From the IMG/VR virus record IMGVR_UViG_3300031993_000015: a stretch of DNA of 64,000 nucleotides; one strand, given 5' to 3'. Positions 23,171-52,068 of this stretch are shown in pieces. How positions within the stretch are numbered: the first letter of the stretch is position 1; each line of letters begins with the position of its first letter. A program made the translations under genes and the position numbers. The notes under the pieces were generated by a model, which did not search any database, was not told the origin of the DNA, and saw nothing but the letters and a program-made list of their open reading frames with translations. Origin of the DNA: a virus (taxonomy: Duplodnaviria > Caudoviricetes).

Positions 23171-25306
23171 ATGACACTGAATGAACTCATCAAGCTCGCC
23201 AACGCCAATCAGGTCCAGCCGATTCAGCCACAACAGCCCCAGCAGCCGCAGCCTCCGAAACCGACAGCTGCGGCTCAGCCATATAACGCGCAGCAGGGTC
23301 AGCCTACTCCGCAGAAGAACGGTTACGGGTACACACGCAGTACATATACTATTCCGCAACAGTATGCCCAGCATCAGAACGCGGACGGCTCGCTCACGAA
23401 GTTCAATCAGCAGGAATACAACGACTGGCAGAATAACGTCAAGAATTGGGAAGCACAGCGCAAGGCTGATCTGGAAGCCCAGGGTATCCAGCTGACGGAT
23501 CAGAACAAGCATCTGTGGAATCATGCGGCGGCTTGGAACTATATCAATCAGAAACGTACCGATGCGCAGGATACCGGTCGTCATTGGTGGAAACCCTGGA
23601 CATGGTTCCAGGATGCTCCGGAGCAGTTCAGGCAGGCAACCAACAACTGGGATCCTGTGGAGATGGAAGCTGCGAAGGCCAGCAGTCAGGGCTATCAGAT
23701 TGGTACGCAGCAGGATATTATGCTGAACCGTGCTGAGCATGCGAAGGTAGCAGATCATTATATCAATAGCCTTGCAAATAAGTTTGTTCTTGGTGATTAT
23801 AAAAATCAAGCCAATAAGGAGTTTGCAAATAGTCTTGTTGATATGGGCGTGGATCCACATGATGCTATAGATACTGTTTTCAAAAGCAATGCCGAAGTCA
23901 TGTTCCAGGATAACACACCTGGTAATGAAAACAGCTGGCGTAATATTCTGCTGCGGGAAGGTGTCGGTCTCGGCGAAGCGTTTTATGGTGCGGATGCGCC
24001 ACAGACATATCTGCTTATGAAGGGTATGGGGCAAATTCCATATGTTGGCAAACACCCATTAGCAGCTACGATAGGTCTCGGTGCTGGTATTCCGTTTGGT
24101 TCCCGTATGGTACAAGCCTATATGACAAACGGGAATCCGCAGGCCGGTCTTTTCTTAGGCATGAACAGTAATAGAGAATACGAGAATCTGTATAGAGACT
24201 GGTACGGTGATGATGCTGCAAATGCGACATTCCAGCTTGGCATGCTACAGAATCAGAACGGAGAATATACAAATGCCTGGGATGTAGAGCACGGCGGTAA
24301 TAATCCTGCAAACTATGCGGAATATACATCATGGGCGGCTGGCAAAGGCTACAGCGGAGATCAGCTCCAGGATCCAGCTGTCATGAAGCAGTGGGTGCAG
24401 CGTTCCATAGACCAGGGAACGCCTGTAGCTGCTATCATGGAAACACCTATGTTCCAGAATCTGACTCCTACTGACAAGGCGCAGTTTGCGGTTGACATGC
24501 TGAAGAACCGTGTGCTTGGTGATACGGGTATGTTCAAGCTGTTGAAACAGAAGTACTGGGATAATATGTCCGAGGCAGAGATGCTCGCGGATGCTATGCG
24601 TAATGACAAGTCCGGTGTTATAGCAGATACCATTGGTGAGTTCTTTGCTATGAACGACACAGCTACTGTTCTCAAGTTCATTGAGATGAACGCTGGTGAT
24701 GGTACTGGTGGATCGGTGGCAGACACGAGTAACCTGTTCAAAGCCTTCCAGGATGGCATGGTTCAGAATCTGAAGAACAACCCAGATCAGACGGGTGCCA
24801 TGATGCAGGGTCTTCTGAATCTTCAGGCAGCGAAGAGTGAAGCAGGTGGTGCAACGCTTGCAAATGACTCACAGGGTGTTGCAGCCATAAAGAAAGCGTT
24901 TACACAGGCGCTTGCAGATCCTGATTTTGTAAACGAGATGTCAGATGACAAATTACTGGAACTTGCTGAACTTTTTGCAAATAACGGTAGCGCTGCTGGT
25001 GGTATGGATATGCTGGGAGATGAATGGGTTGAGCTTGCGAACACAGCCGAAACCAATATCCGAAATAGAGTCAGCGAAGCCTTCTTCAACAATCCACTCA
25101 AGAACGGCCCGAAGATTGCCGGTCTCTGGTTGGCATCCAAAGGTTTCGGCGGGATGGGACAGTTCGCCAGCAACCCGTGGATCTTCTACAGCGTTGCGCT
25201 GTCTTTGCTTCTCGGCGGTGCGCTTATGCTGACCAGTGGCATCGACGAAGATGACGAGGAAGAGGATGACTACCACAGGGCTCTTAAAGACAATCCCTGG
25301 TCATGA
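23171..25306 (+). CDS. Putative internal virion/ejection protein with C-terminal TM segment
   Basis: MTLNELIKLA leader; QP-rich N-terminus; WIFYSVALSLLLGGALML. Confidence 0.5.
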   Translation: MTLNELIKLANANQVQPIQPQQPQQPQPPKPTAAAQPYNAQQGQPTPQKNGYGYTRSTYTIPQQYAQHQNADGSLTKFNQQEYNDWQNNVKNWEAQRKADLEAQGIQLTDQNKHLWNHAAAWNYINQKRTDAQDTGRHWWKPWTWFQDAPEQFRQATNNWDPVEMEAAKASSQGYQIGTQQDIMLNRAEHAKVADHYINSLANKFVLGDYKNQANKEFANSLVDMGVDPHDAIDTVFKSNAEVMFQDNTPGNENSWRNILLREGVGLGEAFYGADAPQTYLLMKGMGQIPYVGKHPLAATIGLGAGIPFGSRMVQAYMTNGNPQAGLFLGMNSNREYENLYRDWYGDDAANATFQLGMLQNQNGEYTNAWDVEHGGNNPANYAEYTSWAAGKGYSGDQLQDPAVMKQWVQRSIDQGTPVAAIMETPMFQNLTPTDKAQFAVDMLKNRVLGDTGMFKLLKQKYWDNMSEAEMLADAMRNDKSGVIADTIGEFFAMNDTATVLKFIEMNAGDGTGGSVADTSNLFKAFQDGMVQNLKNNPDQTGAMMQGLLNLQAAKSEAGGATLANDSQGVAAIKKAFTQALADPDFVNEMSDDKLLELAELFANNGSAAGGMDMLGDEWVELANTAETNIRNRVSEAFFNNPLKNGPKIAGLWLASKGFGGMGQFASNPWIFYSVALSLLLGGALMLTSGIDEDDEEEDDYHRALKDNPWS

Positions 25307-25337
25307 CGCGGAACCTTTTATACATGAGGTATAAATA

Positions 25338-26186
25338 ATGGCACATAATCCGATTTCGACAGGACTTCAGAGATACAAGGCAGTGACCCTCAACCCGATT
25401 GGCCACTCTGCCCTTATGGGCACGACCGCGTTTGGTCTTGGTGCTCTCGGTTGGAATCGCGCCACGGAAACAGCGCGTTCCCTGCTTCGTACTCCGATCC
25501 ATTACATGACAGGCATATCGTACGAGGACTTCGACAAGGAAGTCGATGACATCAAGAAAGACAAGAAGATGAGATACATCATACCAGGCTCTGTCGGGCT
25601 CGGCGTGCTTGGTCTCAGTCTTGCTTTTTGTCACAGACCGAATGAAGAATGGGGCGGTCTTCTTCGCTGGAACGCCAAGCCGAATGGCAAGATGGAGTCC
25701 CACGACATGGGTGGCGGCTACGGATACGTGATGCCCGGCTCCCAGAACCTGACCAAGACAGCATCTGCCATGAACAAGCTGGCGAGCGACATCTTCAATT
25801 ACAGCGGCTATGTTCCGCCTTTCGATTTCAGCCAGCAGGTCAATGTCCCGTACGCCAAACAGGAGTTCTTCTCGAATGATCCGTTCCTGAAGAACGATCC
25901 GTATGCGATGAACTTCGGCAAAGCCATTCTTACCAGTGCTCAGATGCAGAACGGCGCGGCTAATGTACCAATGGGAACCATTTACGACACAGCCGTGGAC
26001 AAGTTCAAGACTAAATTCAGCCTTGGCGGTGTCGTCGGCGTAGCTGCGAAGACGATGTTCGCCAACACTGCAGCGAGACTGTTCACGACTGCTCTCGGAG
26101 CCGTAACAGGTCTGTCCAAGGAGAACCAGGACAGGATCGTTGAAGCCGGAACCTGGGCCGGTGCCATCAAGTCAATTATCAGTTGA
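25338..26186 (+). CDS. Putative virion membrane-associated protein (glycine-rich TM segments)
   Basis: GTTAFGLGALG, GSVGLGVLGLSL; LTKTAS and MNKLAS motifs. Confidence 0.5.
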   Translation: MAHNPISTGLQRYKAVTLNPIGHSALMGTTAFGLGALGWNRATETARSLLRTPIHYMTGISYEDFDKEVDDIKKDKKMRYIIPGSVGLGVLGLSLAFCHRPNEEWGGLLRWNAKPNGKMESHDMGGGYGYVMPGSQNLTKTASAMNKLASDIFNYSGYVPPFDFSQQVNVPYAKQEFFSNDPFLKNDPYAMNFGKAILTSAQMQNGAANVPMGTIYDTAVDKFKTKFSLGGVVGVAAKTMFANTAARLFTTALGAVTGLSKENQDRIVEAGTWAGAIKSIIS

Positions 26187-26195
26187 GGAGACGAT

Positions 26196-26540
26196 ATGAA
26201 CATACAAACAGTACGAGATTCGATGGTCAAGCGGGCTGCTATTCCTGGCGTTACTTATGTCGGGAAGCTACTTGGCAGTATGTTTGCTACGGGTTCCGAT
26301 GCAGTTACAAACGGTGCTTTGTATCTGCTCGGTGCTGCTGCAGCATCCGGTATAGGTATCGGCGCCTTTGGTGCGCACATCACGTCCCACGGAAAACAGG
26401 ACGAGGATACGGTAAAGAAAGAGTACGAGAACGAGCGTCTGAAAGCGGATGTCGGCTATGTTGCCAGCCGTCTGGAGGACGAATACAACCGTTCCAAGAC
26501 CGCAACCAAACCGAAAGCCGCGAGAGTCCTGAATGTCTGA
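26196..26540 (+). CDS. Putative virion protein (leader plus glycine zipper)
   Basis: MNIQTVRDSMVKRAA; GAAAASGIGIGAFG. Confidence 0.55.
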   Translation: MNIQTVRDSMVKRAAIPGVTYVGKLLGSMFATGSDAVTNGALYLLGAAAASGIGIGAFGAHITSHGKQDEDTVKKEYENERLKADVGYVASRLEDEYNRSKTATKPKAARVLNV

Positions 26541-26994
26541 TACCGTTGATGAACCTATCTGCATAAGCGCAGCCGGTGCGCGACTGCTCACAGAGGATGA
26601 CCTGCCGGGTCGTGAGAAAGAAGACGACGGCAGCATCAAGCTGAGCAACAGCGACGCGCTCTGGTCCTATAGGGAAGAACACAAGATCCAGAATGTGCAG
26701 GTTAAGCAGTCCGATTGCAACCTGCCCATCGCGGATGATGAGACGCTGGCGAAGGCATTCCGGCTGAGTACCGTGCCACACTCCGAGATGTTCTGGCTCT
26801 CACCGGAGGACACGGAAGCACTGGAAAAGTACAACCAGATCATTCAGGCTGCCTATGACGGAAAAGTTATCATAGTAGACGAACAGAAACAATATGATCA
26901 GAGCAAGGGCAAGTTCATGGTGTGGCTCCGTTACGACGAGGTCGGCTGGGAACTCCATCCGCGCTTTGAGTTTATACGAGAGGAGCGAAAATGA
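26533..26994 (+). CDS. Hypothetical protein in the structural region
   Basis: Packed operon; codon bias. Confidence 0.65.
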   Translation: MSDTVDEPICISAAGARLLTEDDLPGREKEDDGSIKLSNSDALWSYREEHKIQNVQVKQSDCNLPIADDETLAKAFRLSTVPHSEMFWLSPEDTEALEKYNQIIQAAYDGKVIIVDEQKQYDQSKGKFMVWLRYDEVGWELHPRFEFIREERK

Positions 26995-28034
26995 GCAATC
27001 CAGCTGCAGCATGGGGCGATAGCCGCCAGGGCTCATGGTTCAACACGTTCAACCCGCTCTCGCAGGTCTTTCATCAGACTGACAGGATTCCTGCGTGGTG
27101 GGTCAACAATATGTTTCCGCATACGAAGGGCGGCCAGCGTGCTGCCCATCTGACTTTCAAGGCGGGCGCCGATGCTCTGATGGCCGCCGGCCTGATTGCG
27201 CTGTGGCGCGGGATGTCCCATGTGAATCGTATGTCGGAACTCGCCAAGAGCGATAATCCGGCGAACGGCATGAAATCTCAACTGTCCACAACGTTTGCAG
27301 GATCTCTTGATCCAGAGAAGCAGACGAAGGAGGCATCGGCGGATGCTCCGAATACACTGGGCCAGCCTGCCATTTTCTCAGCAGCTAATGCACTTAGCAC
27401 AGCTCTTCCTATCGGAGCTGTGCTTCTGGCTACCAGCCTTGCTTATAAGGCGACTGATGACTATCTGGACAGCAAGCGGAACAAGGCGCTGGATGCCGCT
27501 ATCGGCAGCAAGGAGAACATTCTGAAGCGCCTTATCAAGACACGTTCCAGACTTGCCAAGGGAAATGCCTCTGATTCCGAGGTTCGCAGAGCGCTCGGTG
27601 GTATGACCAATGAGGATCTGTATGTGAAGCAGGCGGCTCTTGGTAAGCAGGCTGATGGTTTTGTCAGTGGCGCCAAGGATACGATGCGCGGTACAGTTGG
27701 CGGATTCGCTGCTCTGAGCTGTTTGGTTCTGGGTGCCGCTGCGGTCGGTTCCTACTATTACTTCAGCAAGGCGGATGAGAATAACATCCGGTATCGTGCC
27801 ATGAAGAAGGGCCTCAAGGAGTATTCCCGTATGAAGTCTGGATTCACGCCGGTCGCGATCATTCCGACAAAGTCCCGCAAGTTCTTCGCAGACATCGACG
27901 AAGAAACTCCACAGCGCAAGAAGAAAGAAGTTGCGGCGGCACCTGCGCAGGTCACAGCTCCTGTCGAGAGCGTCCGTACGGAACAGCCTGTTCTGACTGA
28001 GACATACAACAAGCCAATTTCACTTACACTGTAA
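26991..28034 (+). CDS. Putative virion protein, three hydrophobic segments separated by K-x-A motifs
   Basis: TKEAS, VKQAALGKQAD; three TM-like helices. Confidence 0.55.
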   Translation: MSNPAAAWGDSRQGSWFNTFNPLSQVFHQTDRIPAWWVNNMFPHTKGGQRAAHLTFKAGADALMAAGLIALWRGMSHVNRMSELAKSDNPANGMKSQLSTTFAGSLDPEKQTKEASADAPNTLGQPAIFSAANALSTALPIGAVLLATSLAYKATDDYLDSKRNKALDAAIGSKENILKRLIKTRSRLAKGNASDSEVRRALGGMTNEDLYVKQAALGKQADGFVSGAKDTMRGTVGGFAALSCLVLGAAAVGSYYYFSKADENNIRYRAMKKGLKEYSRMKSGFTPVAIIPTKSRKFFADIDEETPQRKKKEVAAAPAQVTAPVESVRTEQPVLTETYNKPISLTL

Positions 28035-28052
28035 ATATAGGAGTTACAACTC

Positions 28053-29747
28053 ATGAATCTCAATCGCATTCACAAGAGCATGCTCAAGCGGGCAGACTTT
28101 CTCGATGAGCTGAAATATTATGCCAAAGGTCTTGGCATGTTGAGCAGCGATGACGTCGCTGATGCTTACAAGAACTCAATCGACAATCTCAGTACTGGCA
28201 TGGCGAATGCGTATACTGGGACTCGTGACGCAATCAACAATGGTGCGCAGGCCGTCGCCAATACATACAACGGCGCTGTCGATAACCTGGCGACTGGTAT
28301 GGCGAATGCCTACACGGGAACTCGCGATGCTGTGAACCGTGCTGGCCAGGCTATCGCTGACACTTACAATGGCGCGGTTGATAACCTGTCCACTGGCATG
28401 GCGAACGCATACATCGGCGGCCGTGATGCGATTAACCGTGGAGCCCAGGCTGTCGGCGATGCATACAACGGAGCCGTGGACAACCTTTCCACCGGAATGG
28501 CGAATGCCTATCTTGGCGGCCGCGACATGGTCAACCAGGCTGGTCAGGCCATCAACAACGGAATCAATGCCGCCAAGCAGACAGGTCAACAGATCGCTGA
28601 TGAAGCCAAGTATTATGGCAAAGGTCTTGGCATGATGGATGCCAATGACATGACGGCGGGTATCAACCAGTTCTACAACGCGGCCAGCGATGCGGCTGCT
28701 CCCGCAATCAACGCCGGACAGCAGGCTGTTCAGGCTGGTCGTACTGCCGTCGGAAACGCCAGAGATGCCGCCGGTCAGGCGATCAATCGTGGCGCACAGG
28801 CTGTGAACAATACCTACAACAGCATGATGAACAGAGGTCAGCAGCTCTGGGATTCCGCGAAGCAGAAAGGTCAGCAGATCGCTGATGATCTGCGATACAC
28901 CGGCCAGGGCCTCGCGATGGATGCCCAGGATACCTGGAATGATATGAAGCGCACTGGTCAGGATGTCCGCAGAATGGCTGGAAACGAAGCCAGAGCGGCG
29001 GGCCAGGCCATCAACAATGGTGTGCAGGCTGTGAATAACGGCATGCAGGCTGTGAACAATGGTATCCAGGCTGGTGTCAATGCCGGTGTCAACGCCGGTC
29101 GTGCTGCTGGCCAGGCTGTCCAGAACGGTGTCCAGGCTGCAGGTAACGCCGTCGGCAACGCCTACGACAAGGCTTCCGACTGGATGTCCGGCGCCATGTA
29201 CGGCAACACCTACCGCAACGCGATGAACTCCATGCAGGATGCGCAGAACGCTCGTGTCAATCCGAGCTACGCTGACAACCCGGCCATCCGCCGTCGCGCC
29301 TCTGACGAAAACGTCCGTCAGATGCAGCAGTACATGCAGCCGCAGATCGCGGCCGAGAACAACGATCAGGCGATGCAGCAGTGGGCGCAGGGCATGCAGC
29401 AGATGCAGCGCAACGGCGTCCAGGGTGCCAACCAGTACTCTGCGAACCCGGCTCCCGCTATGGGACGTCTCGGCGGCGCCGGACAGTACATGCAGCAGCG
29501 CCAGAACGCCAACACGAACCTCGGTGGCGCCGGCCAGTACTTCGCCAACCGCGCTCAGGGCATGCGCCGCGACAACGCCAGACAGGGCATGCAGCAGTTC
29601 TGGGGCGGCATGAACCGCCAGATGCAGAACCTGCGCACTCCGCAGCCCGGCGCCAACACGACCGGCAGCTACATGCCTCCGCGCATGGCCAATAACAACA
29701 TGCAGCAGCGCATGAGAAACTTCCAGAACAGCATGCGCCAGTTCTGA
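28053..29747 (+). CDS. Putative internal head protein with amphipathic repeats and Q/N/M-rich tail
   Basis: MNLNRIHKSMLKRAD leader; four 33-aa repeats. Confidence 0.6.
   Translation: MNLNRIHKSMLKRADFLDELKYYAKGLGMLSSDDVADAYKNSIDNLSTGMANAYTGTRDAINNGAQAVANTYNGAVDNLATGMANAYTGTRDAVNRAGQAIADTYNGAVDNLSTGMANAYIGGRDAINRGAQAVGDAYNGAVDNLSTGMANAYLGGRDMVNQAGQAINNGINAAKQTGQQIADEAKYYGKGLGMMDANDMTAGINQFYNAASDAAAPAINAGQQAVQAGRTAVGNARDAAGQAINRGAQAVNNTYNSMMNRGQQLWDSAKQKGQQIADDLRYTGQGLAMDAQDTWNDMKRTGQDVRRMAGNEARAAGQAINNGVQAVNNGMQAVNNGIQAGVNAGVNAGRAAGQAVQNGVQAAGNAVGNAYDKASDWMSGAMYGNTYRNAMNSMQDAQNARVNPSYADNPAIRRRASDENVRQMQQYMQPQIAAENNDQAMQQWAQGMQQMQRNGVQGANQYSANPAPAMGRLGGAGQYMQQRQNANTNLGGAGQYFANRAQGMRRDNARQGMQQFWGGMNRQMQNLRTPQPGANTTGSYMPPRMANNNMQQRMRNFQNSMRQF
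28167..28562 (+). repeat. Four 99-bp coding tandem repeats
   Basis: YNGAVDNLSTGMANAYxGxRDAINRxxQAxxxx, four copies. Confidence 0.9.
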
Positions 29748-29759
29748 TTGGAGGTTCCT

Positions 29760-29867
29760 ATGAATCTTCCAGTCGTTTATACACACATGTCTGTGGTCTC
29801 CAAGGAGATCCCGGACAAGGTCATAAAATCCAAAGTGCGCAACTTCAACGATATTGCGCCAGAGTAA
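29760..29867 (+). CDS. Small ORF (35 aa)
   Basis: GGAGG RBS; MNLPVVYTHMSVVSKEIP... Confidence 0.45.
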   Translation: MNLPVVYTHMSVVSKEIPDKVIKSKVRNFNDIAPE

Positions 29868-29878
29868 GGAGACTCAAG

Positions 29879-30817
29879 ATGAATATCGAACGAATTAAAA
29901 ATTCGATGCTCAAGACAGCTGCAGCTCATGTCAGCATTTCGTATCCCTGGGTTATCCATAGTGATGGTCGTGTCGAGGGGTATGGACAGGCCCCTACCAT
30001 AACGACAACTGGAATGCCTGACATATCCAATGGTTTTGGTGGTAACACCCAGGACAGTGGAAAATACGATTACGAAGGCAACTACCAATTGCAACGGGCA
30101 GCAGAAGCGGCGGATCGTGCAAGACAGCTGGAACTTTATGGTCCAGCCGACAACATGTCCAAGTACAATGAGATATACAATTCCGCAGTTCCAATGGAGA
30201 AAGCACGTCAGATCAATCAGATCAACGAGATGTCTCTGCAAAATCCCGTTGCAGCTGCTTACAATAAACAGCAGTCATCCAGTATGCTGTCGCCACGACA
30301 GCGTGCTTATAATAACGGTGCGAGGGTTTTGAATACTCTCGGAAGTATGATGGACAGAGGTCTCAATCGTATCGGCGAAATGTACGATGCCAATCTGACC
30401 AGAGCTAAAGAAGCGCAAGGTCTTACACCTGCTCAGATCCATGGACCGTCAGCAGCCGAATATCAAAAGGGTCACGAGATCTACGGCCCAAATGATACTA
30501 CGGGCTTCATGACACCGGTACGCAACTCACCGCTGTGGGAGAAGACACCACAGGACTACGCAAGAGATGCTGAAATGGCCAAGCGCAACAAGAAATGGGA
30601 TGCCCAGAGTAAGAAACGCAGAGCTATTTGGGATGCGCAATCAAGGGCTCGTCAGTTCAAGAGAAACCAAGAACGCTTCGGTAGTTACCTGGATGATGCA
30701 CGCAATGCATGGTCGCCCGAAGAACGTGATCGCGCTTTGATGAAGGCACGTCTCCTGCCCCCAAGAGATGCATCTGATGAGTTTACGCAGCATGTTTGGT
30801 TCCCTGGAGAAATTTGA
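29879..30817 (+). CDS. Putative internal head protein
   Basis: MNIERIKNSMLKTAAA leader. Confidence 0.55.
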   Translation: MNIERIKNSMLKTAAAHVSISYPWVIHSDGRVEGYGQAPTITTTGMPDISNGFGGNTQDSGKYDYEGNYQLQRAAEAADRARQLELYGPADNMSKYNEIYNSAVPMEKARQINQINEMSLQNPVAAAYNKQQSSSMLSPRQRAYNNGARVLNTLGSMMDRGLNRIGEMYDANLTRAKEAQGLTPAQIHGPSAAEYQKGHEIYGPNDTTGFMTPVRNSPLWEKTPQDYARDAEMAKRNKKWDAQSKKRRAIWDAQSRARQFKRNQERFGSYLDDARNAWSPEERDRALMKARLLPPRDASDEFTQHVWFPGEI

Positions 30818-31539
30818 TGCCAGACACCACCGGTACACTCAACAATCTCGTCAGGGCTCAGCAGAAGTTCATCGCGAACGTTCTGGATGAGAAGCCCACA
30901 CAGATCTACAGGCTGGACGATTACAAGCAGATCAGGAATGCGCTGTTCGACAACGTGAAGAACGCTGTGCAGAAGCGCTTCCCTCTGTTCAATGATCGCT
31001 ACACCTTGGCTGTTGAGGACATCGACTATGATGACCCTGACGAGATCGACATCACGAAGCAGAAACAGTGCATCCTGGAAGGCAAGTCCTGCGACCGTCG
31101 CCTTCGCGGATCCTGGGTGCTTCGTGATGCAGCGACTGACAAGGTCGTGAGTAAGACCAAGCGCATGACTCTGATGCGCGTGCCCTACATGACAGACCGT
31201 GGAACTTTTATCCGCAATGGCCACGAGTACGCCTTCACGAATATCATGCGCCTGGAACCCGGTGTGTACACGAAGAAGCGCGACGACGAGATCTCCGCAC
31301 AGTTCAACGTGCAGAAAGGGACCGGCGCTGGCTTCAATATGTTCCTGACACCGGAAACAGGCATCTTCAAGATCAAACGAGGAACTACCAGCTGTCCTGC
31401 TTACACGGTATTCAAAGACCTCGGTGTGACCGACGACCAGATGCAGGAAGCCTGGGGACAGGAACTGTTTGAGAAGAACAAGAAGGCAGGCACGGACGAG
31501 AAAGCTCGTCAGGCTGCCTCCAAGATCTACAACATGTGA
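30817..31539 (+). CDS. rpoB: RNA polymerase beta subunit, N-terminal fragment
   Basis: VPYMTDRGTFIRNGHEY...MRLEPGVY corresponds to RpoB IPLMTxxGTFIINGxER...RSPGVY. Confidence 0.85.
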   Translation: MPDTTGTLNNLVRAQQKFIANVLDEKPTQIYRLDDYKQIRNALFDNVKNAVQKRFPLFNDRYTLAVEDIDYDDPDEIDITKQKQCILEGKSCDRRLRGSWVLRDAATDKVVSKTKRMTLMRVPYMTDRGTFIRNGHEYAFTNIMRLEPGVYTKKRDDEISAQFNVQKGTGAGFNMFLTPETGIFKIKRGTTSCPAYTVFKDLGVTDDQMQEAWGQELFEKNKKAGTDEKARQAASKIYNM

Positions 31540-31546
31540 GAACATC

Positions 31547-32179
31547 ATGCAGACATACGCAGAGTTCAGAAAGACAGCACAGACTGTGACGGACGTGTGG
31601 ACGCCTGGTATGATGACGCCTCAAGAGGCTGCTGATTACCACAAGTCTGTGCAGGAAGCCAACAAGATCAGCGACGCATACACATACACTGTTCCAGACG
31701 ATTCAGATTTCGATGACGGCGGTCCGACCTATTTCGATTTGAAGAGACAGGAAATGGAAGATGCGCGTGCTGCTCGTTTTGGCGAAGAACACAGGTTTGC
31801 AGAAGATGCATCGGACATACTGTCTGATGATGGTCCTGGCGAGTTCGGTGAAGATCTCGGAGCACCTGCTGAGCCGCCATCTGTTCCCAAGACACCGATT
31901 CCGCCTAAGCCGCCGACGGTGCAGACCAGGACTACGCCGAATGTGTTTGTAGCCACGAATACAGGTGCTGATCTGAATAAGATGTATCAGAATGCAACGA
32001 ATCCTGTGAATCCGACAGGTCGCAGGAATGTCGCGGGCTCCACTACATATAAGCCAGCGCCGTCTTCATTCAAGCAGCCGACGCAGGCAGATGCGGAGCC
32101 GAAAACGCCAATGAAGAAATTCCAGTCATACCAGGAGTTTCGCACCAAGAATGGCTTGTACGCGAAAATCACCGCATGA
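31547..32179 (+). CDS. Putative internal head protein (CTS-like leader)
   Basis: MQTYAEFRKTA leader; P/T-rich; C-terminal SYQEF. Confidence 0.55.
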   Translation: MQTYAEFRKTAQTVTDVWTPGMMTPQEAADYHKSVQEANKISDAYTYTVPDDSDFDDGGPTYFDLKRQEMEDARAARFGEEHRFAEDASDILSDDGPGEFGEDLGAPAEPPSVPKTPIPPKPPTVQTRTTPNVFVATNTGADLNKMYQNATNPVNPTGRRNVAGSTTYKPAPSSFKQPTQADAEPKTPMKKFQSYQEFRTKNGLYAKITA

Positions 32180-32277
32180 CGCACCCACTAATGTAACGAA
32201 GGACAACATCCTTTCCAAATAGAAACCAACAAAAGCTATCTCGATAGCAACCAAACATAACACAGAGGAGTCTTACA

Positions 32278-32844: not shown

Positions 32845-32912
32845 TTTCTGTCAAACATCGCAGGGAGTGTCTCCACACGGGGACCCTCCCTGTATTCTTA
32901 AAGAGGTGACAA

Positions 32913-33911: not shown

Positions 33912-33916
33912 CGCAG

Positions 33917-33939
33917 ATTTTCAACTTCAAGTTGAAAAT
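33917..33939. repeat. Dispersed 23-bp palindrome, copy 3 (perfect, intergenic)
   Basis: ATTTTCAACTT-C-AAGTTGAAAAT. Confidence 0.85.
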
Positions 33940-33941
33940 TC

Positions 33942-40553: not shown

Positions 40554-40562
40554 GGATTGCTC

Positions 40563-42410: not shown

Positions 42411-42420
42411 GAGGTACAGC

Positions 42421-44613: not shown

Positions 44614-44625
44614 CCAGGAGTTTGT

Positions 44626-45534
44626 ATGAGCCAGGAATCCGACGTCGAGATTCTGGAAGGGCCGGTCGTTCCGGCAGAAAAGACTCCCTCCAACACAAGG
44701 GAGTTTTTTCTTAGACCTCCGGATTGGCGGTACCAGGCAGCCGTGAAATATCTGAACGACGAGCTGCATGGTATCACGCCAACTATCCCGACGGACATTC
44801 ATGTCCAGTACGCCGTGCGGGTGTTGCGGGCTTTCAATCAGCCTGCTACACGTATCTATATGGATGTGCTCTGCCCGGATGCCGTTGAGACAATCACGCT
44901 GGGTGTCATCATGAAGCACTCGGCGATTACGGCAGACATCGAGAGCTGTATCATCAGCGGCAGTACAACGGAAGAGCTGGAACTGGACGGGTTCTACATC
45001 AGGCCGGTCGTGTTCGACCTGTACGCCAAACTGTTCTGCGACCTGTCGGGGATCACGGCTGTTCATGCCTGGATCCACGACTTTCTTTTAGAGCCCGAAC
45101 GCCATAGCGAGAACACGACGCTCCTGAAAGCACGGCTGATGGCGTACTACGGTGGCAAGAACATGGGCGGTACGGCTGCTGTAACAGGGTTCATAGACAG
45201 CGAGACCCAGCAGCTCATGAAACAGATCACGGCGACGGAACAGCAGAAGCGCATTTTTGAGTACGTCGTGAGGGCTACCGACATGAGAGCCGAGGACTAT
45301 GTCGCGGTCATGGAAGGAGCCGTTAAAAGTATGACGGAAAAAGACTTTCAGGAGAAGATGCGCGACCGCGAGGAGGCTGGATCCAGTTCACTTGAGGAAC
45401 TTGCCGGCCATCTTGAGGAGGGCATCAGAGCATATAGCCAGAAAGAACTGGAGGCGGTCAACGCTTCCGGTCTTGACTTTGTCAACCAATATACTCCCGT
45501 AATCATCCGAAAGGAACAGGACGATGGAAAATAA
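44626..45534 (+). CDS. Hypothetical protein
   Basis: AGGAG RBS; packed operon. Confidence 0.7.
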   Translation: MSQESDVEILEGPVVPAEKTPSNTREFFLRPPDWRYQAAVKYLNDELHGITPTIPTDIHVQYAVRVLRAFNQPATRIYMDVLCPDAVETITLGVIMKHSAITADIESCIISGSTTEELELDGFYIRPVVFDLYAKLFCDLSGITAVHAWIHDFLLEPERHSENTTLLKARLMAYYGGKNMGGTAAVTGFIDSETQQLMKQITATEQQKRIFEYVVRATDMRAEDYVAVMEGAVKSMTEKDFQEKMRDREEAGSSSLEELAGHLEEGIRAYSQKELEAVNASGLDFVNQYTPVIIRKEQDDGK

Positions 45535-47296
45535 GATATCTTCTTCCGATGAGCGCAAGCTGACGAACGCCATCGAAAGCGCTGCCATTCTGGCAAGCAA
45601 TGACGCATCCCGTGACAGGAACCAGCTCCTTGCGGATGAACTCAAGAAAGAGGGCGTGGATTCCCGTTTCGCAAAAGTGGCGTCCTGTGCTTTCAACAAG
45701 CGCGTCACTGTGCTGACCTTCAAGAAAACAGCCGACGAACATAAAGCAGATCCTTTCGAGCTGACGGATGGTGACAAAGTCCTGGAACTGATGACCGGTG
45801 AATCGCTGGAAAAGGCTGCGGCACTCACAGCGGCCGATTTCGAGATCACCGTTACCGGCGCTCCTATGCAGAAGGCGGCATCCGCCGAGGCTCCTGCCCG
45901 TGCCTGCTTTGAGGACACTGTGGACTACGACCGGCTGGTCAAGCACGTCGAGAATGTCATGACCAAGAACGCGGCCGCCATCTACGAGGTTCTTCAGAAG
46001 CAGCGCGATGTCGAATCCGTCGCCGAGTCTCTGAAGCAGGAACTGGCCGATCACTTTATCAAGGATGCCAGTGCTTCCTATGCGTTCTCCAGTCTGATCA
46101 ATCACTACGGCGACCGCTTCCAGAATGCCATCCAGGACAAGCTGCCTGAGCATACGGATTGGACAAAGACTGCGGCAGACGCAATTCTGTTCAATGATCC
46201 GGTCTTTGACAAGGCTGCCAAGATGATCGAGATGCACGAAGCCAATGAGAACCTGAAGGCGGTGCTCGACAAGTATGGCGAAGGTCTCACGGAGTTCTGC
46301 AAGTCGGCAGCCATGCTTGGAGATTTCATCCAGAAGGCAGAGTCCGGTTTCGTCAAGACAGCGGCACCCGGTATCGGTGACATCGTCATTGAAGGTGCAA
46401 AGGAACTTGCTCCGCTTCCACATGCTGCTGCCAGTTCCGCACTGGGTGCTGCAGATAATCTTATCAGCGGTGTTGGTAACACGGCTGGCAACGCTTTCTC
46501 CAATGCGTACGCTCTGTACCAGGCTGGTAACGCGGCACACATGGCTCCGAATGAAATTCTTGATGCGGACTTCCTTACGAAGGATCGCTACAGAGACCGT
46601 CTCCTGGGCTGGTCCGACATGACAGCAGATCCCCAGTTTGCCATGTATCCTGCAGAGCAGGTGTTCCTCGCCACACAGAAGGCGATGGACATGGACACCA
46701 CGCTGGAACGTCCGGACAAGCGCGAAGTGCTTCGCTCTTATGTGGCACAGCTCCTGGCGCAGAACAATCGTATGTCCACGGCTGATATTGCGGCTCTTGC
46801 CCAGACTCTCCGTGGTCTGTCCTCTGCCGATGAACACGGTGCCCAGCAGCTTGCAGTCAAGTCTGTCAAGGGCATGGATGAGACCCGCGCTCCTGAGATG
46901 CCGAATCTCAAGCCGGTCATCGAAGGCAAGCGCGATATCAAGGGTGAGGAACGTGCGAATGCTGCCTATGATGCAATCGGCGGCATGCGTGAAGAGTTCG
47001 AGAAGAACGTGGACAAGGCCAAAGAGTCTGAATCCAAGCAGCGTGACAACGTGCAGAAAGCACAGGAATCCGCTCAGCGTGCAGAGTCCGACAAGGCGAA
47101 GAACCGTATCGCGGCACAGAACGCCCGCAACAAATTCCTCACTGATGTCGCCGGCCTCCAGATCGGTGGTTACAACAGAGCCACAGGTCAGATCACATAC
47201 AGGACATCTGCTGGTGCTCGTATTGGACAGGACGTTGTTGACAACATCCTTTCCAATGCCGAAAAGGCCGGCCTCGTTCCTGCACTTCAGGCGTAA
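45524..47296 (+). CDS. Helical head-associated protein with many K-x-A motifs
   Basis: KKTAD, EKAAA, QKAAS, TKTAA, CKSAA, VKTAA. Confidence 0.55.
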   Translation: MENKISSSDERKLTNAIESAAILASNDASRDRNQLLADELKKEGVDSRFAKVASCAFNKRVTVLTFKKTADEHKADPFELTDGDKVLELMTGESLEKAAALTAADFEITVTGAPMQKAASAEAPARACFEDTVDYDRLVKHVENVMTKNAAAIYEVLQKQRDVESVAESLKQELADHFIKDASASYAFSSLINHYGDRFQNAIQDKLPEHTDWTKTAADAILFNDPVFDKAAKMIEMHEANENLKAVLDKYGEGLTEFCKSAAMLGDFIQKAESGFVKTAAPGIGDIVIEGAKELAPLPHAAASSALGAADNLISGVGNTAGNAFSNAYALYQAGNAAHMAPNEILDADFLTKDRYRDRLLGWSDMTADPQFAMYPAEQVFLATQKAMDMDTTLERPDKREVLRSYVAQLLAQNNRMSTADIAALAQTLRGLSSADEHGAQQLAVKSVKGMDETRAPEMPNLKPVIEGKRDIKGEERANAAYDAIGGMREEFEKNVDKAKESESKQRDNVQKAQESAQRAESDKAKNRIAAQNARNKFLTDVAGLQIGGYNRATGQITYRTSAGARIGQDVVDNILSNAEKAGLVPALQA

Positions 47297-47308
47297 GGAG
47301 TCTGCCCT

Positions 47309-48766
47309 ATGATGAAGAAAAGTTTCCTCCCTGAGTCCTTCAACTTCGATGTCCAGCCGGTAGAGATCATCGGCCTGGGCTCCAAAGGGCTTGACAAGAC
47401 GGCGATGGTGAAACGCGCCAGCGCGTTCGATGATGTCATCGACAAACTGGAGAAGAAAGCCAACCGCACGTATCTGCATGTCATCACGACCGGTGCATAT
47501 GAGCAGTACGGCCCGAACATGAACGGTGATGGCTGGAACGGTGAGTCCTTTGAACTCAAGTTCCCGCACCCGGAGAACATGTCGAAGAAAGCGATGGTTC
47601 TCGACGGCGGCCTGTCCAAGTATCACGATGATACATACATGAAGGACGGCGCTGTGTACCAGGAGCACCAGACTAAGACTGCCGGCGTGGATCCGTCCGG
47701 CGAAGTGGTCGCTGCCAGGTACAATCCGATGATGAAACGCGGCGAACTCATTATTGCCGTGGATACTGAGAAATGGGCGCCCAGGCTCCAGAAGAAAGCC
47801 AAGGGCGAGAACATCTATCTCAGCATCGGCGCATCTGTTCCTCACGACATTTGTACCATTTGCGGACGCCAGGCCAAGACAGCCAGTGAGCACTGCAGTC
47901 ACTTCAAGATGCACCGTGGCGAAGTCTATGACTGCGGCGTTCGCTCCTGCGTGATGAACGACCGGCCGGATTTCTATGACATCTCTGGTGTGAATGTGCC
48001 GGCCGACAAGATCGCGTTCGTTCTACAGGAAGTCGGTCACGGCGATAAGCTGACCAAGACCAGCTCCTTGCACGACATCATGCAGCAAGCGACACAGACA
48101 GTCGGTGTCCGTCCTCCGATGGTGCTCACGAAGGCTGCCATGATCCTGGGCAAGCTGGCCCGCATGGAGAAGCAGATCGAGGGTATCGTCGAGGGCGACA
48201 AGAAGCCTGATAAGGACGCTTTTGAACACGAAGATGACGCAGAGAAAGATTTTGAACTTGAAGTTCAAAATTATCCTGCCGATGAGGTGATCGACGGTGC
48301 GAACCGCAAGGGCATCCTGCTGACTCCAGGCATGCTGTTCCGTTTGCTTGGCAAGGAATGCTCTGATCCGGATAACGCGCTGAAGGACTGTGACGACGAA
48401 TCCTGTGGCGATCTGTCATGCATGATGCGTGAGCTGGAGGATGATGAGGATGTCAATGATGAGCTGCTGGACGGTTCTTTCGACCAGCATCCGCCTGTGG
48501 ATCTGAACCTCGACAGCATTCTGGAGAAGTTCGTTCCGATGTTCGGGATGACGGACCCCGCTGTCAATACACGGGTTATCCACATCACAATCGTCGGCGC
48601 TCCGAAACACGGTACTGTAGACAAGAAGGCGTCTCTGAATAAGTTCGCACAGGAAGCCCTGCGCAGGACCTATGCCAGATACCTCATCAGTTTTGCTGCT
48701 CAGAACAACGACAGCACCTGCATGAACGCCCTCATGAAAATAGCTGGAATCGGGAAACGCGGCTGA
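47309..48766 (+). CDS. Prohead (capsid maturation) protease with Zn-finger insert
   Basis: NMNGDGW, VYQEH, LSIGASVPHDICTICG..CSH, FYDISGVNVPADKIA; located upstream of scaffold and capsid genes. Confidence 0.72.
   Translation: MMKKSFLPESFNFDVQPVEIIGLGSKGLDKTAMVKRASAFDDVIDKLEKKANRTYLHVITTGAYEQYGPNMNGDGWNGESFELKFPHPENMSKKAMVLDGGLSKYHDDTYMKDGAVYQEHQTKTAGVDPSGEVVAARYNPMMKRGELIIAVDTEKWAPRLQKKAKGENIYLSIGASVPHDICTICGRQAKTASEHCSHFKMHRGEVYDCGVRSCVMNDRPDFYDISGVNVPADKIAFVLQEVGHGDKLTKTSSLHDIMQQATQTVGVRPPMVLTKAAMILGKLARMEKQIEGIVEGDKKPDKDAFEHEDDAEKDFELEVQNYPADEVIDGANRKGILLTPGMLFRLLGKECSDPDNALKDCDDESCGDLSCMMRELEDDEDVNDELLDGSFDQHPPVDLNLDSILEKFVPMFGMTDPAVNTRVIHITIVGAPKHGTVDKKASLNKFAQEALRRTYARYLISFAAQNNDSTCMNALMKIAGIGKRG
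48249..48271. repeat. Dispersed 23-bp palindrome, copy 4 (perfect, intragenic)
   Basis: ATTTTGAACTT-G-AAGTTCAAAAT. Confidence 0.85.
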
Positions 48767-48831
48767 TTACTTGCCGTGTTTTCATTTGATAGAACACCAA
48801 ACCCTGGATTACAACATAAAGGAATCCACTT

Positions 48832-49977
48832 ATGAGCAATCAACTCCAGACCAAGGCGAACCGCGTTGCCGAACTGCTCGCGCAGTACGGTCTCAACAAG
48901 GAAGCCAAACAGACTATCACGCACACCAATCTCCTGGCTCAGAACAATCTCGGTCGCGAGATGACCAATGAGATCCACGAGAACGAAGAAGGCGTCCAGG
49001 CCGATACCGAAGCGGCGGAGAACAAACCCACCGCCAAGATCGACGCCATCCCGAACGCCCAGAACCTGAACACCTCTGCGGAGCAGGCCCTCGCCAACAC
49101 CGGCAGCACAGTCGAGACCCAGGAATCCGACGGCTCCAGCGCCGAAATGCCTGCTGAACAGGCCAAGAGCGCTGCGGCCTTTGCCCAGGTCCTCAAGCAG
49201 ATTCAGGACAAGAAGGCTGCTGCGAAGAAGGAAGAAGATTCCTTCATCACAGCTACTGAAGTGTTCGCCAAGTGGGCGTCTCTCGGACCGCGCTCCACGC
49301 AGGCTGACATCGACGCCGCGACTGCTTCTCTCCAGAAGCTCGCCTCTGTCAACCCGGCCTTCACCGCGACTCGTGACAACATCATCGCCATGAAGAAGTA
49401 CGCGGAAGCGGAAGAACTCGCCGAAGCTGCTGACATCGCTCCCGAAGACGCCGCTGCGGCTCTCGACGCCGCTGTCGAAGCGAATCCGGAAATGGATGCC
49501 GAGATCCTCGACGAAGCCAACGGCGAAGCGGTTGCCGATCTGGCGGATGCTGAACAGGAAGTCGGCGAACTTACCGACGGCGCCCAGATGCTCGCTGACG
49601 GCGCTTCCCAGATCCTCGACGCCGATGTCACTCCCGACGACATCGCCGACGCTCTCGATACCGTCACCGAAATGGCTGACGAAATGGGCGTCGATCCCAT
49701 CGAACTCATCCAGGCTGCTGCTGAAGAAATCCAGCAGGGCGAAGAGCCCACTGAAGAAGACATGGCGAACGCCGAAGAACTCGTTGCGTTTGCTGAAGAG
49801 CAGGGCATGACCCCGGATGAACTCATTCAGGAAATCGCAGCTTCCATCGAAGCTGATGAAATGGGCGGAGAAGAGCCCGAAGCCACGGAAGAACCGATTG
49901 AGAAGGCAGCTTCGCTGCAGAAACAGTCGCACAGTCCCCGTGTGGCCTACGTGCTCGAACAGCTCAAGAACGCTTGA
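48832..49977 (+). CDS. Probable scaffolding/core protein
   Basis: Very acidic, Ala/Glu-rich, strong codon bias, multiple K-x-A motifs, between protease and capsid genes. Confidence 0.6.
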   Translation: MSNQLQTKANRVAELLAQYGLNKEAKQTITHTNLLAQNNLGREMTNEIHENEEGVQADTEAAENKPTAKIDAIPNAQNLNTSAEQALANTGSTVETQESDGSSAEMPAEQAKSAAAFAQVLKQIQDKKAAAKKEEDSFITATEVFAKWASLGPRSTQADIDAATASLQKLASVNPAFTATRDNIIAMKKYAEAEELAEAADIAPEDAAAALDAAVEANPEMDAEILDEANGEAVADLADAEQEVGELTDGAQMLADGASQILDADVTPDDIADALDTVTEMADEMGVDPIELIQAAAEEIQQGEEPTEEDMANAEELVAFAEEQGMTPDELIQEIAASIEADEMGGEEPEATEEPIEKAASLQKQSHSPRVAYVLEQLKNA

Positions 49978-49989
49978 GGAGACCCGCAC

Positions 49990-50427
49990 ATGGCAGAACA
50001 GGCAATGGAAAAGCTCGCATCTGAGCTGATTGAGCGCCTGGCCGCCGTGGAGACTGAGAACAAATCTCTGCGCAAGGCCAACGAAGATCTTCGCGCCCTG
50101 ACGCAGCAGATGTCCACAGTCAAGCAGGCTTCCCAGGAAATCAAGCAGGTCGATGAGGACCTGCTTGACTCCACCTGCAAGAACCTCGTGAAGAGCGGCG
50201 CTCTCCGTGAGGACCAGGTGGAACAGGCGAAAGCGATCTTCAAGACAGACATGAATGCCGGCCTGACTGTCATTCAAAGTCTTCTTGACGAGCACGCTCA
50301 AGTAAAGACTGCTGCGGAACAGGCTTCCCTCGCGGGTGGCACTGTCGTCCACATCAGTCAGAACACACAGCGCAGCCCGGAAGATGAGTGCATCGACCGC
50401 ATGCGCAAAACACTCGGCCTTCATTAA
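49990..50427 (+). CDS. Small coiled-coil scaffold-like protein
   Basis: MEKLAS, VKQAS, VKTAA. Confidence 0.55.
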   Translation: MAEQAMEKLASELIERLAAVETENKSLRKANEDLRALTQQMSTVKQASQEIKQVDEDLLDSTCKNLVKSGALREDQVEQAKAIFKTDMNAGLTVIQSLLDEHAQVKTAAEQASLAGGTVVHISQNTQRSPEDECIDRMRKTLGLH

Positions 50428-50448
50428 ACCTACATAGGAGTTACAACA

Positions 50449-51090
50449 ATGGCTGGCTTCACACGCACCAACTTCGATCAGCAGATCAACCACGCTGCTG
50501 TTCTGGCGCACGGAGCACACCCGAAGTATCGCGTCGAACACGACGGCGAACTCGATGCCTCCACGCCTGAGAAGAAACTCGCGAACTCCGCTATCAAGCA
50601 GGGTTCGGTGGTTCACCTGGATTCGACCACTGGCAAGTACAACATCGGCCTCGCCGCTGCTTCCAGCATCAACTTCCCGGTGCCCTTCATCTCCCTCAAG
50701 AACGCTTTCGATCCCGATGTGACCACCGGCGTCGAAGGTGACACCCAGACCGTCCAGATCTACGGTTCCACCAACACCTTCACTTTCCCGAACCCCCGTC
50801 GCTCCACGTTCAGCGCCGTCGGCGGCAAGATCACGGCCATTCCGTGCACCGCCGGCTACGAAATCGAAACGACCGAGTTTGTCGAAGGCACCTATGCGAT
50901 CAACGACGCGCTCACCGCTGCCAGCTCCACTGACATCGGCAAGCTCAAAGTCGCGACCGCCGTGCCGTTCAAGGCGTCCGGTTCCGTGCCGATCCTCGGC
51001 TTCGTCTCCCGCGTTCCTTACACGAACGACGCTTATCTCCAGAAGCGCATCGGGTTCTGGACCAACTTCATCCCGGCTGTCGGGGCCTAA
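50449..51090 (+). CDS. Probable head decoration/cement protein
   Basis: Beta-rich, strong codon bias, immediately upstream of the capsid gene. Confidence 0.5.
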   Translation: MAGFTRTNFDQQINHAAVLAHGAHPKYRVEHDGELDASTPEKKLANSAIKQGSVVHLDSTTGKYNIGLAAASSINFPVPFISLKNAFDPDVTTGVEGDTQTVQIYGSTNTFTFPNPRRSTFSAVGGKITAIPCTAGYEIETTEFVEGTYAINDALTAASSTDIGKLKVATAVPFKASGSVPILGFVSRVPYTNDAYLQKRIGFWTNFIPAVGA

Positions 51091-51108
51091 TCCAAGGAGG
51101 ACTTCACT

Positions 51109-52068
51109 ATGGCTTGGGATCAAATCAAAGTTGCTTCCGTTTCTGAAGACATCCGCGCAAAGTTCGCCACCGGCGACAAGGACATGTGCAAGCAGGGCAC
51201 ACTCGCTGCCAACGACTACTTCCGCACAGAAATCCGCTCCAACGGCATCCGTCGTCAGATCACTCCGCCTGTCCAGGTCACGAAGGACATGTTCGACCCG
51301 TCCGAGACCTCCGACATTCCGATCATCTACGCCGAGGTCGCTCCTCGCTCGTCCGGCGCCTACATGGTCTCCTTCGAGACTGGCCCGAAGAACGAGAACA
51401 TCTACGGCAACAAGATCCGCATCGAACTCAACCGCATCATGACCAAGAAGTACAGCATCGACAAGATCCGTCTCGATGCCTACAAGATGCCGCTGCTTGA
51501 GATCCTCGAAGACCTGCTCCTCAAAGACATCATGGATGTCGAGGACAACGTCACCATCGGTCTCGACAAGGACATCTGCGGTCCTCTGAACACGGTCAAC
51601 CCCTGGATGGGCTGCCGTCGCTATGTCACCTGCGGTGGCATCAGCCGCGAAGCTCTCGTGCACCTCAAGAAGGGCATGCCTGTGGCTCCTGGTCATCTCA
51701 TGACCAAGAAGTTCCTTATGAACGACCTCACCTACTTCGATCTCGGCGCTCTCGACCGTACCGAAGTCGGCGGCGACATGGCGCAGGAAATGTTCGTCAA
51801 CGGCGTCACCACCTCCAAGATCCAGGGCATCGACACGGTCGTCACCATCAAGACCGACCTCATCCCGACCAAGGAAGTGTTCATCTACACCGATCCGATG
51901 TACTACGGCGGCTTCTACGTCTACAACGACGTCACGATGGTCGTCGATGAAGTCGATGACATCTGGATGACCTTCTTCGCCCATGAGTGCGTCGGCGCCT
52001 CCGTGGCCAACAGCCCCGGCGTTGCCCGTGCATCCCTCACCGGCACCCTCGTCGATTGGGAAGGCTAA
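51109..52068 (+). CDS. Major capsid protein (HK97-like)
   Basis: 319 aa, very strong codon bias, AAGGAGG RBS, followed by a terminator; EIRSNGIRRQITPP, FAHECVGASVAN; IKVAS leader. Confidence 0.7.
   Translation: MAWDQIKVASVSEDIRAKFATGDKDMCKQGTLAANDYFRTEIRSNGIRRQITPPVQVTKDMFDPSETSDIPIIYAEVAPRSSGAYMVSFETGPKNENIYGNKIRIELNRIMTKKYSIDKIRLDAYKMPLLEILEDLLLKDIMDVEDNVTIGLDKDICGPLNTVNPWMGCRRYVTCGGISREALVHLKKGMPVAPGHLMTKKFLMNDLTYFDLGALDRTEVGGDMAQEMFVNGVTTSKIQGIDTVVTIKTDLIPTKEVFIYTDPMYYGGFYVYNDVTMVVDEVDDIWMTFFAHECVGASVANSPGVARASLTGTLVDWEG

Follow-up and report, generated by a model that had tools for sequence, protein, structure and literature searches.

The question raised by this locus is whether a group of phage head genes carries a common address and cutting code at the beginning of otherwise unrelated proteins. 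The locus lies in a 64,000-nucleotide stretch of the IMG/VR virus record IMGVR_UViG_3300031993_000015 (the window; the reverse complement of positions 41226–105225 of a 178,489-bp genome rated 100% complete), in which about 15 head and internal proteins, probably with the only RNA polymerase among them, carry short N-terminal tags, or leaders, that end in Lys-x-Ala (K-x-A). All coordinates given here are window coordinates, genes are named by the first of these, and every head gene lies on the + strand. The original prediction, made from the sequence alone, saw in the leaders a new system by which unrelated cargo and a transcription machine are addressed to the head, processed at K-x-A and ejected with the DNA. 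We find the word ‘new’ overstated, in that the principle is that of phages T4, phiKZ and SPN3US with a changed protease specificity, and we consider it fairly probable that the locus encodes an address-and-cleavage system of the T4/phiKZ type, with Lys at P3 and Ala at P1.

Our comparisons took in the head modules of five uncultured relatives (G001–G005), whose capsid proteins share 87, 64, 61 and 42% identity with that of IMGVR_UViG_3300031993_000015, the fifth relative being a fragment. Among cultured phages the nearest are Salmonella phage Arash and Vibrio phages D69, D148 and D181, with identities of about 30% for the polymerase and 26–28% for the protease, and their homologous protease, polymerase, portal and capsid genes stand in the same order. 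The head region gave no match by megablast against 50,697 phage records.

Enrichment and conservation of K-x-A in head proteins

The original prediction had proposed a test for enrichment of K-x-A in head as compared with tail and early open reading frames (ORFs), and enrichment is what we observe. The motif occurs within the first 20 residues of 12 of the 23 head-module proteins, as against 9 of the 148 proteins encoded elsewhere in the genome (Fisher p = 2.5e-7); shuffling of each protein, repeated 1000 times, gave an expectation of 2.5 +/- 1.5 for the head module and never more than 8. The head modules of the relatives behave similarly, with K-x-A in the first 30 residues of 58 of their 116 ORFs where 20.9 +/- 4.1 are expected. 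Internal sites, which had been noticed in the protease, the scaffold, 42421 and 45524, are in excess in the first three of these (15 observed versus 3.1 expected in the protease 47309, z 7.4; 9 versus 3.5 in the scaffold-like protein 48832; 12 versus 4.8 in 42421), while in 45524 the excess is confined to the extended motif K-x-A-[S/A] (8 versus 1.6). The rest of the genome holds 180 K-x-A where 175 are expected.

The same motif emerges from an unbiased scan of all 400 residue pairs one position apart, made on a substrate set consisting of the protease, the scaffold and 42421, 45524 and 49990. K-x-A ranks first of the 400 pairs in this set (49 observed versus 20 expected) and first again in each of G001–G004 (z 6.2–7.5), and it is the top enriched pair in Arash gp218–224 and the top pair in the best 150 homologues of the protease (1536 observed versus 513 expected). 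The next-ranked pair in the scan is L/M/F-x-K, which points to a hydrophobic P5, and the residue after the Ala is preferentially Ser or Ala, the motif in its fuller form being hydrophobic-x-K-x-A followed by S or A. Within the substrate set the z score for KxA is 7.6, as compared with -0.4 for the [LI]xE of T4, 1.8 for the [SAG]xE of phiKZ and -1.5 for a herpesvirus-like [VLI]xA, and the control motifs AxK, RxA, KxS and KxxA score -1.2, -0.6, -1.0 and 0.8 respectively. The shuffles and control motifs rule out chance or composition as the cause of the excess. Nor is expression-linked N-terminal composition the cause, because the tail genes are late genes too and presumably well expressed, yet lack the motif.

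Conservation falls on the two defining residues of the motif. In five substrates aligned with their orthologues the Lys and the Ala are each 77% conserved, as compared with 43–57% for the middle residue (P2), the flanks and other Lys and Ala residues (p ~5e-7), and six sites of the scaffold 48832 have K and A invariant in five genomes around a middle residue that varies (for example E/E/S/K/V and W/I/F/L/V). An N-terminal K-x-A also persists in the orthologues of 23171, 26196, 38778, 39741, 42421, 47309, 48832, 49990 and 51109, despite changing leader sequence. On this evidence from sequence we hold it highly probable that K-x-A is a genuine maturation cut site.

One of the relatives, G004 (IMGVR_UViG_3300045988_176357), reads TAG as a sense codon, with 29 in-frame TAG in its portal gene; its ORFs collapse under table 11 and open with TAG readthrough, and K-x-A is still enriched there (z 6.2).

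Leaders and their cargo

All the N-termini quoted in the original prediction are present on the + strand where it had placed them, and the starts are ATG codons behind GGAG/GAGG-type Shine–Dalgarno sites; two starts depart from this, in that the start of 31547, 8 nt past the stop of 30796, is preceded by a weak site, and 23171 has its GAGG at -10. The leader-bearing proteins, together with one that bears a leader only in the relatives, are as follows.

23171–25306, + strand: head protein of 711 amino acids; leader MTLNELIKLA followed by N; orthologues have MTLGTLIKLA, MNYRHLYKTA, MNYRVLYKKA and MDYMKFRSLYKEA
26196–26540, + strand: 114-amino-acid protein; class-1 leader MNIQTVRDSMVKRA followed by A; N-terminal K-x-A in all orthologues (G001–G005)
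26991–28034, + strand: head protein of 347 amino acids; no leader here; relatives begin MNK[T/E/Q]A
28053–29747, + strand: variable cargo of 564 amino acids; class-1 leader MNLNRIHKSMLKRA followed by D; no orthologue in the relatives
29879–30817, + strand: variable cargo of 312 amino acids; class-1 leader MNIERIKNSMLKTA followed by A
31547–32179, + strand: variable cargo of 210 amino acids; class-2 leader MQTYAEFRKTA followed by Q
32278–32844, + strand: cargo of 188 amino acids; leader MTYNEAV...GQIKTA followed by G; G001 has MTYQEALKKRA on a partly related protein
32913–33911, + strand: cargo of 332 amino acids; GMVKTA followed by A, residues 17–19, and K-S-A at 31; no orthologue in the relatives
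38778–39737, + strand: Gly/Pro/Met-rich head protein of 319 amino acids; leader MPYIPYNQFMRKSA followed by V; K-x-A in five of five relatives before a conserved VAVLTPEAMQAA
39741–40553, + strand: 270-amino-acid protein; class-2 leader MQTYTEFLMVKKA followed by G; its positional counterparts in the relatives start with MTYTESYIKKTA, MNYIEVQKMRKEA, MADMNKTA and MEVSRNMKILAKLA
-1392 to -319, outside the window and 24 kb upstream of the head module (L021:320–1393, - strand): 357-amino-acid protein; fourth class-1 leader MNVRTVQHSMLKCA followed by A

Every leader ends in the same K-x-A that is enriched and conserved in the protease and the scaffold. Class-1 leaders follow the pattern M-N-[ILV]-x-x-[IV]-x-x-S-M-[LV]-K-x-A; the three members originally listed (26196, 28053, 29879) hold up, and the list is completed by the fourth, encoded upstream of the window. 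These leaders conserve 7–9 of their 14 residues across four unrelated proteins, and the shared residues are encoded by different synonymous codons, which argues for selection on the peptide rather than for a DNA repeat. Class 2 comprises MQTYAEFRKTA and the leader of 39741, with MTYAEFEKQA, MTYHEFKKQA and others in the relatives. BLAST among the leader-bearing proteins (four of class 1, two of class 2) found no similarity of one to another, and PHROG and Pfam scans found no match for 23171, 25338, 26196, 26533, 26991, 29879, 31547, 32278, 32913, 39741, 44626, 49990 or 50449; the matches of 28053 are weak and of an apolipoprotein-like helical-repeat kind only. A position-weight matrix built from the relatives' leaders gave its top eight scores to head-module genes, and was too noisy for single proteins to be used.

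The capsid targeting sequence of phage T4 is MKTYQEFIAE (PMC8442874), in which residues 4 and 7 serve targeting and residues 8 and 10 processing (PMC9026906). Class-2 leaders have M-x-T-Y-x-E-F in common with it, so that both targeting residues (Tyr4 and Phe7) are kept, and the I-A-E of T4 is replaced in them by K-x-A; class 1 is without Tyr4 and Phe7. In both phages the tags are short (10–19 residues in T4, 8–20 here), sit on unrelated, fast-evolving internal proteins (IPI–III and Alt in T4) and have as their last residues the motif cut, or here predicted to be cut, by a gp21-fold enzyme. T4 differs in its processing end and in its leaders, of which there are at least two classes here. No orthologues exist in the relatives for the genes from 28053 to 33911; other leader-bearing genes occupy that position there, the variable cargo carries the same kinds of leader, and this variable locus recalls the hypervariable internal-protein loci of T-even phages.

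Whether the leaders act as addresses is a separate matter from whether they are cut. K-x-A could be a cut site and the leaders merely disposable propeptides, which hold a protein inactive or act as spacers, with the cargo entering the head via its mature domains or by co-assembly. Some leaders have five residues only (MNKTA and the other MNK[T/E/Q]A forms in the relatives; MPKSA on the Arash polymerase), which is too short for targeting; 26991 is leaderless here and has a leader in the relatives; and most SPN3US head proteins, the polymerase subunits apparently among them, are packaged uncleaved (PMC10052503). On the other hand, the residues that the class-1 leaders conserve extend beyond the P5–P1 determinants of cleavage, the class-2 leaders retain both T4 targeting residues, and the variable cargo genes of every relative have acquired leaders of the same kinds. 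We consider leaders that are propeptides and nothing else to be unlikely, and lean, by a modest degree and partly by analogy with T4, towards leaders that also target proteins to the head.

Outside the head module, the original observation that tail and early genes have no such leaders holds in general. A single tail/early-gene match to the leaders, 78245, lies outside the window and is probably due to chance, and a protein rich in K-x-A-S is encoded beyond the tail genes:

89260–90192, about 25 kb past the end of the window (L022:1035–1967, - strand): 310-amino-acid protein P0151; six K-x-A-S versus 0.36 expected

Most of its K-x-A-S sites have a hydrophobic P5, and this protein is probably a further protease substrate or a scaffold-like protein encoded away from the head module. 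The neighbours of the upstream class-1 protein are a protein of about 1100 amino acids (start -239) and one with a LigD 3'-phosphoesterase domain (3148–4449), a homologue of which sits within the head module of G004; the region around -1392 to -319 may be a second cargo cluster.

The probable prohead protease, its substrates and the predicted position of the cut

The genes for the protease, scaffold and capsid protein follow in the order 47309, 48832, 51109, and are listed here with the portal and the presumed multi-site substrates:

21279–23162, + strand: portal, opening the head module; no K-x-A leader; 23% identical to Arash gp204, which is annotated as portal
42421–44613, + strand: multi-site substrate of 730 amino acids; GLMTKNA followed by G at residue 13; 11 internal K-x-A; seven sites kept in four of four relatives
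45524–47296, + strand: substrate of 590 amino acids; 10 K-x-A in the N-terminal half (residues 51–280)
47309–48766, + strand: prohead protease; gp21/assemblin-fold domain (residues 1–230, from the model below), disordered linker and helical C-terminal domain; 15 K-x-A sites
48832–49977, + strand: scaffold-like protein of 381 amino acids; nine K-x-A sites
49990–50427, + strand: helical protein of 145 amino acids; MEKLA followed by S, residues 8–10; two more K-x-A-[S/A]; kept in three of three relatives
51109–52068, + strand: major capsid protein (PHROG major head protein, 4.9e-9); QIKVA followed by S, residues 7–9, kept in three of four relatives

The AlphaFold2 model of 47309 (pLDDT 87) aligns with T4 gp21 (5jbl_A) by VIA-align at Z 11.5, with an rmsd of 3.2 Å over 149 of 165 residues, and the next among viral proteases are those of herpesviruses (varicella-zoster virus, Z 6.3; cytomegalovirus and Kaposi's sarcoma herpesvirus, 4.6 and 2.6). 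Foldseek against the PDB gave no match at E <= 0.001, T4 gp21 appearing with a probability of 0.94–0.95 but an E of 0.17, and it is the VIA-align match that settles the question: as modelled, 47309 has the T4 gp21/herpesvirus assemblin fold. Across 75 homologues D74, H120, S172 and D224 never vary, and a CxxC...CxH cluster hardly does; the order of the candidate catalytic residues H120, S172 and D224 agrees with that of H77, S153 and D178 in SPN3US gp245. The PHROG match to ‘head maturation protease’ is weak (E 0.004). Because known protease families are not matched at the level of sequence, our claim for 47309 is limited to its fold and invariant residues. Its family comprises 2327 clusters at 50% identity in metagenomes, across which an N-terminal site of the form hydrophobic-x-K-x-A-[A/S] is conserved. 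Judged from the motif and the modelled fold, K-x-A is very likely the recognition motif of the phage's own prohead protease, 47309, which would be a serine protease.

The protease of this genome has 485 amino acids and those of relatives 884, 626 and 642, with many homologues at about 860 (some 400 residues longer); the main polymerase gene encodes 1574 amino acids here and 2074, 2457, 2633 and 1965 in G001, G002, G004 and G005. The extra length in the relatives' protease and polymerase genes, 140–1060 residues overall, is likely due to inteins or homing elements.

As to where the bond is cut, enzymes of the gp21 family read P3 and P1 (L/I-x-E, S/A-x-E, A-x-E), the K and the A of the motif are equally conserved, and the N-terminus of the leaderless 26991 aligns just past the MNK[T/E/Q]A of three relatives; together these place the predicted cut directly after the Ala. 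Herpesvirus proteases follow the rule (V/L/I)-x-A-S, with the cut between Ala and Ser. The enzyme described here would resemble them in its fold and in having Ala at P1 and Ser at P1', and would differ in that P3 is Lys rather than hydrophobic; it is encoded in a phage genome, and [VLI]-x-A is not enriched. Among the substrates, the N-terminal half of 45524 looks like a long propeptide cut at many places. The capsid protein 51109 has K-Q-G at about residues 27–29, where G001–G004 and Arash have K-x-A followed by G or T, so that either Gly is tolerated at P1 or only nine residues are trimmed, after the K-V-A at 7–9. The Arash capsid protein, gp226, has LVKEA followed by G. An Atlas search gave no usable match for 42421. 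For 21279, Atlas feature and structure leads point to portal families; Pfam and PHROG gave no match, and PDB sequence and profile searches returned chance matches only.

A conserved K-x-A might instead be left uncut, as a binding or structural motif of head-core proteins that contacts shell, portal or DNA, or as a helix feature of Lys/Ala-rich scaffolds. The substrates are indeed helical, with much Lys, Ala and Glu, there is a mild enrichment of KA dipeptides as well (z 2.9), and cleavage at K-x-A is deduced here rather than observed. Such a motif would not be expected, however, to survive composition-matched shuffling while AxK, KxxA, RxA and KxS remain unenriched, to recur at a short, constant distance from the start of unrelated proteins, or to reach its highest density in the protease itself and in the scaffold, a pattern shared with T4, phiKZ and SPN3US; the preference for Ser or Ala at P1' and the hydrophobic P5 also resemble a protease subsite pattern, and we regard a purely structural motif as quite improbable. 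Least probable of all, to the point of being very hard to sustain, is that the motif is processed after the Lys, as in HK97-type capsid maturation, which cuts after a Lys (between Lys and Ser), or by a host protease instead of 47309, since even with a deduced cut position the Ala two residues on is as conserved as the Lys, fitting a P3/P1 pair such as enzymes of the gp21 family read, the mature N-terminus of 26991 falls, when aligned, immediately past the Ala, and the motif co-varies with the 47309 family across 150 homologues.

Opposite the head genes lie several long stop-free antisense frames (21297–23177, 42400–44436, 45503–47914), the longest considered being an ORF of 1094 amino acids at 48700–51984 on the - strand, which we reject as a gene: the four sense genes beneath it share one frame, have GC3 values of 0.67–0.81 and are without TTA, CTA and TCA codons, and the long antisense frames are thus codon-bias shadows, not genes. 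At window position 8903 one base differs from the genome sequence.

The RNA polymerase, the proposed system as a whole and its meaning

The genome holds only one set of RNA polymerase genes, and it is encoded among the head genes, in three pieces interleaved with leader-bearing cargo genes; the first two pieces form a single protein in Arash (Gp206).

30796–31539, + strand: RNA polymerase beta N-terminal fragment, a separate gene; matches Arash Gp206 residues 29–204; 62–86% identical in the relatives; no leader
34017–38741, + strand: RNA polymerase beta/beta-prime N-terminal fusion of 1574 amino acids; Pfam Rpb2_6 8.8e-56 and Rpb1_2 6.2e-27; PLKTA followed by A, residues 28–30
40557–42410, + strand: RNA polymerase beta-prime C-terminal subunit; Pfam Rpb1_5 3.8e-15; homologous to Arash Gp216; no leader

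That the polymerase is packaged in the virion is plausible, given that it is the only set, stands among the head genes and has homologues in Arash, about 30% identical, that were abundant in a virion preparation: by mass spectrometry Gp206 was the most abundant protein of that preparation and Gp216 was among the most abundant (PMC10585845). Of the original claims that on the polymerase is the weakest, and so is its site among the sites; the enzyme would enter the head by its own K-T-A-bearing N-terminus. The K-T-A at residues 28–30 is kept in G001, G002 and G004, three of the five relatives, and the N-terminus of 34017 resembles neither leader class.

If the address-and-cleavage system operates as we envisage, the portal 21279 would serve, late in infection, as the base on which the protease and the internal cargo assemble together with the scaffold proteins, namely 48832, 49990 and the N-terminal half of both 45524 and 42421, and the capsid protein 51109 would then enclose this core. 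The cargo leaders, of 8–20 residues, would act like the T4 capsid targeting sequence, holding the cargo on the core by an i/i+3 pair of aromatic or hydrophobic residues (for class 2, Tyr4/Phe7; for class 1, Ile3/Val6/Met10). The protease would cut after Ala, freeing the cargo, breaking up the scaffold and itself, and trimming nine residues off the capsid protein (about 29 in the relatives); the fragments would exit the head as the DNA enters. The mature cargo and the only RNA polymerase would remain inside the head, to be delivered with the DNA to the next cell.

Of the two halves of the original address-plus-cleavage proposal, the cleavage half is strongly supported by the enrichment, by the conservation of K and A in five relatives, Arash and 150 homologues, and by the adjacent gp21-fold enzyme, while the address half is suggested by the shared leaders and by Tyr4 and Phe7. 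Several points weigh against the system as proposed. That cleavage occurs is deduced from motif statistics, conservation and a protease fold, that is, from sequence and a structural model, and the scissile bond (P3 Lys, P1 Ala) is assigned by analogy with the L/I-x-E of T4 and the Ala–Ser bond of the herpesviruses. The protease has no Pfam match at E <= 0.01 and no PDB sequence or profile match, and many of its own K-x-A sites sit inside the folded domain and may never be cut. The five-residue leaders belong here too. For the polymerase, the site is K-T-V in G003 and shifted in G005, and the Arash virion preparation listed 116 proteins (PMC10585845), which makes contamination likely and the abundance of Gp206 and Gp216 weak evidence for packaging.

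Among known systems, that of T4 also shares with this one a scaffold and protease that themselves carry many cut sites, here predicted. It differs in that its processing end is I-A-E, L/I-x-E not being enriched here, and in that the substrates here seem to include a multisubunit RNA polymerase; moreover, the protease here has no sequence-level match to gp21, and has a Cys/His cluster and a helical C-terminal domain of 250 residues. The proteases of phiKZ, 201phi2-1 and SPN3US (gp175, gp268 and gp245; motif S/A-x-E or A-x-E), to which 47309 shows no similarity by BLAST, serve large heads that contain numerous internal and ejection proteins, together with a split beta/beta-prime polymerase whose genes lie among those of the head, cut long propeptides at several redundant sites (compare 45524 and 42421) and process themselves. 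They differ in cutting after Glu, and these phages have two polymerase sets as compared with one here; short leaders are rare among them (two of nine substrates in SPN3US) and most head proteins are uncleaved. In Arash and Vibrio phages D69, D148 and D181, despite their homologous genes, no processing or leader code has been reported, and the Arash paper mentions neither protease nor cleavage (PMC10585845). We searched the literature for a prohead-protease motif of the Lys/Ala kind and for studies of an Arash-type polymerase, and found none. The cutting rule, hydrophobic-x-K-x-A with the predicted cut before S or A, is undescribed in the phage literature that could be searched, and the mechanism of loading and trimming is itself known.

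We put forward more tentatively, and as doubtful, a wider interpretation in which the M-x-T-Y-x-E-F tag is ancient and portable, common to T4-like phages and this distant clade, the gp21-fold protease having switched its P1 from Glu to Ala (the Ala–Ser bond of the herpesviruses) and its P3 to Lys, and in which the system also loads the only multisubunit polymerase. If this were true, a phage below jumbo size would be independent of the host polymerase from the first minute of infection.

The characterized gp21-family phage proteases, those of T4, phiKZ, 201phi2-1 and SPN3US, all cut after Glu, so that a Lys-x-Ala rule would, if true, be a new specificity, and one that would connect the phage enzymes with herpesvirus assemblin and its Ala–Ser rule. 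The prediction is testable in the cultured Salmonella phage Arash, and the leader could be put to use for loading foreign proteins into the heads of phages like Arash. The variable genes that bear leaders provide candidates for injected effectors, perhaps with an anti-defence role. Since the protease family is large, with its 2327 clusters, and almost wholly uncultured, the motif would allow mature N-termini, scaffolds and injected cargo to be predicted throughout the clade.

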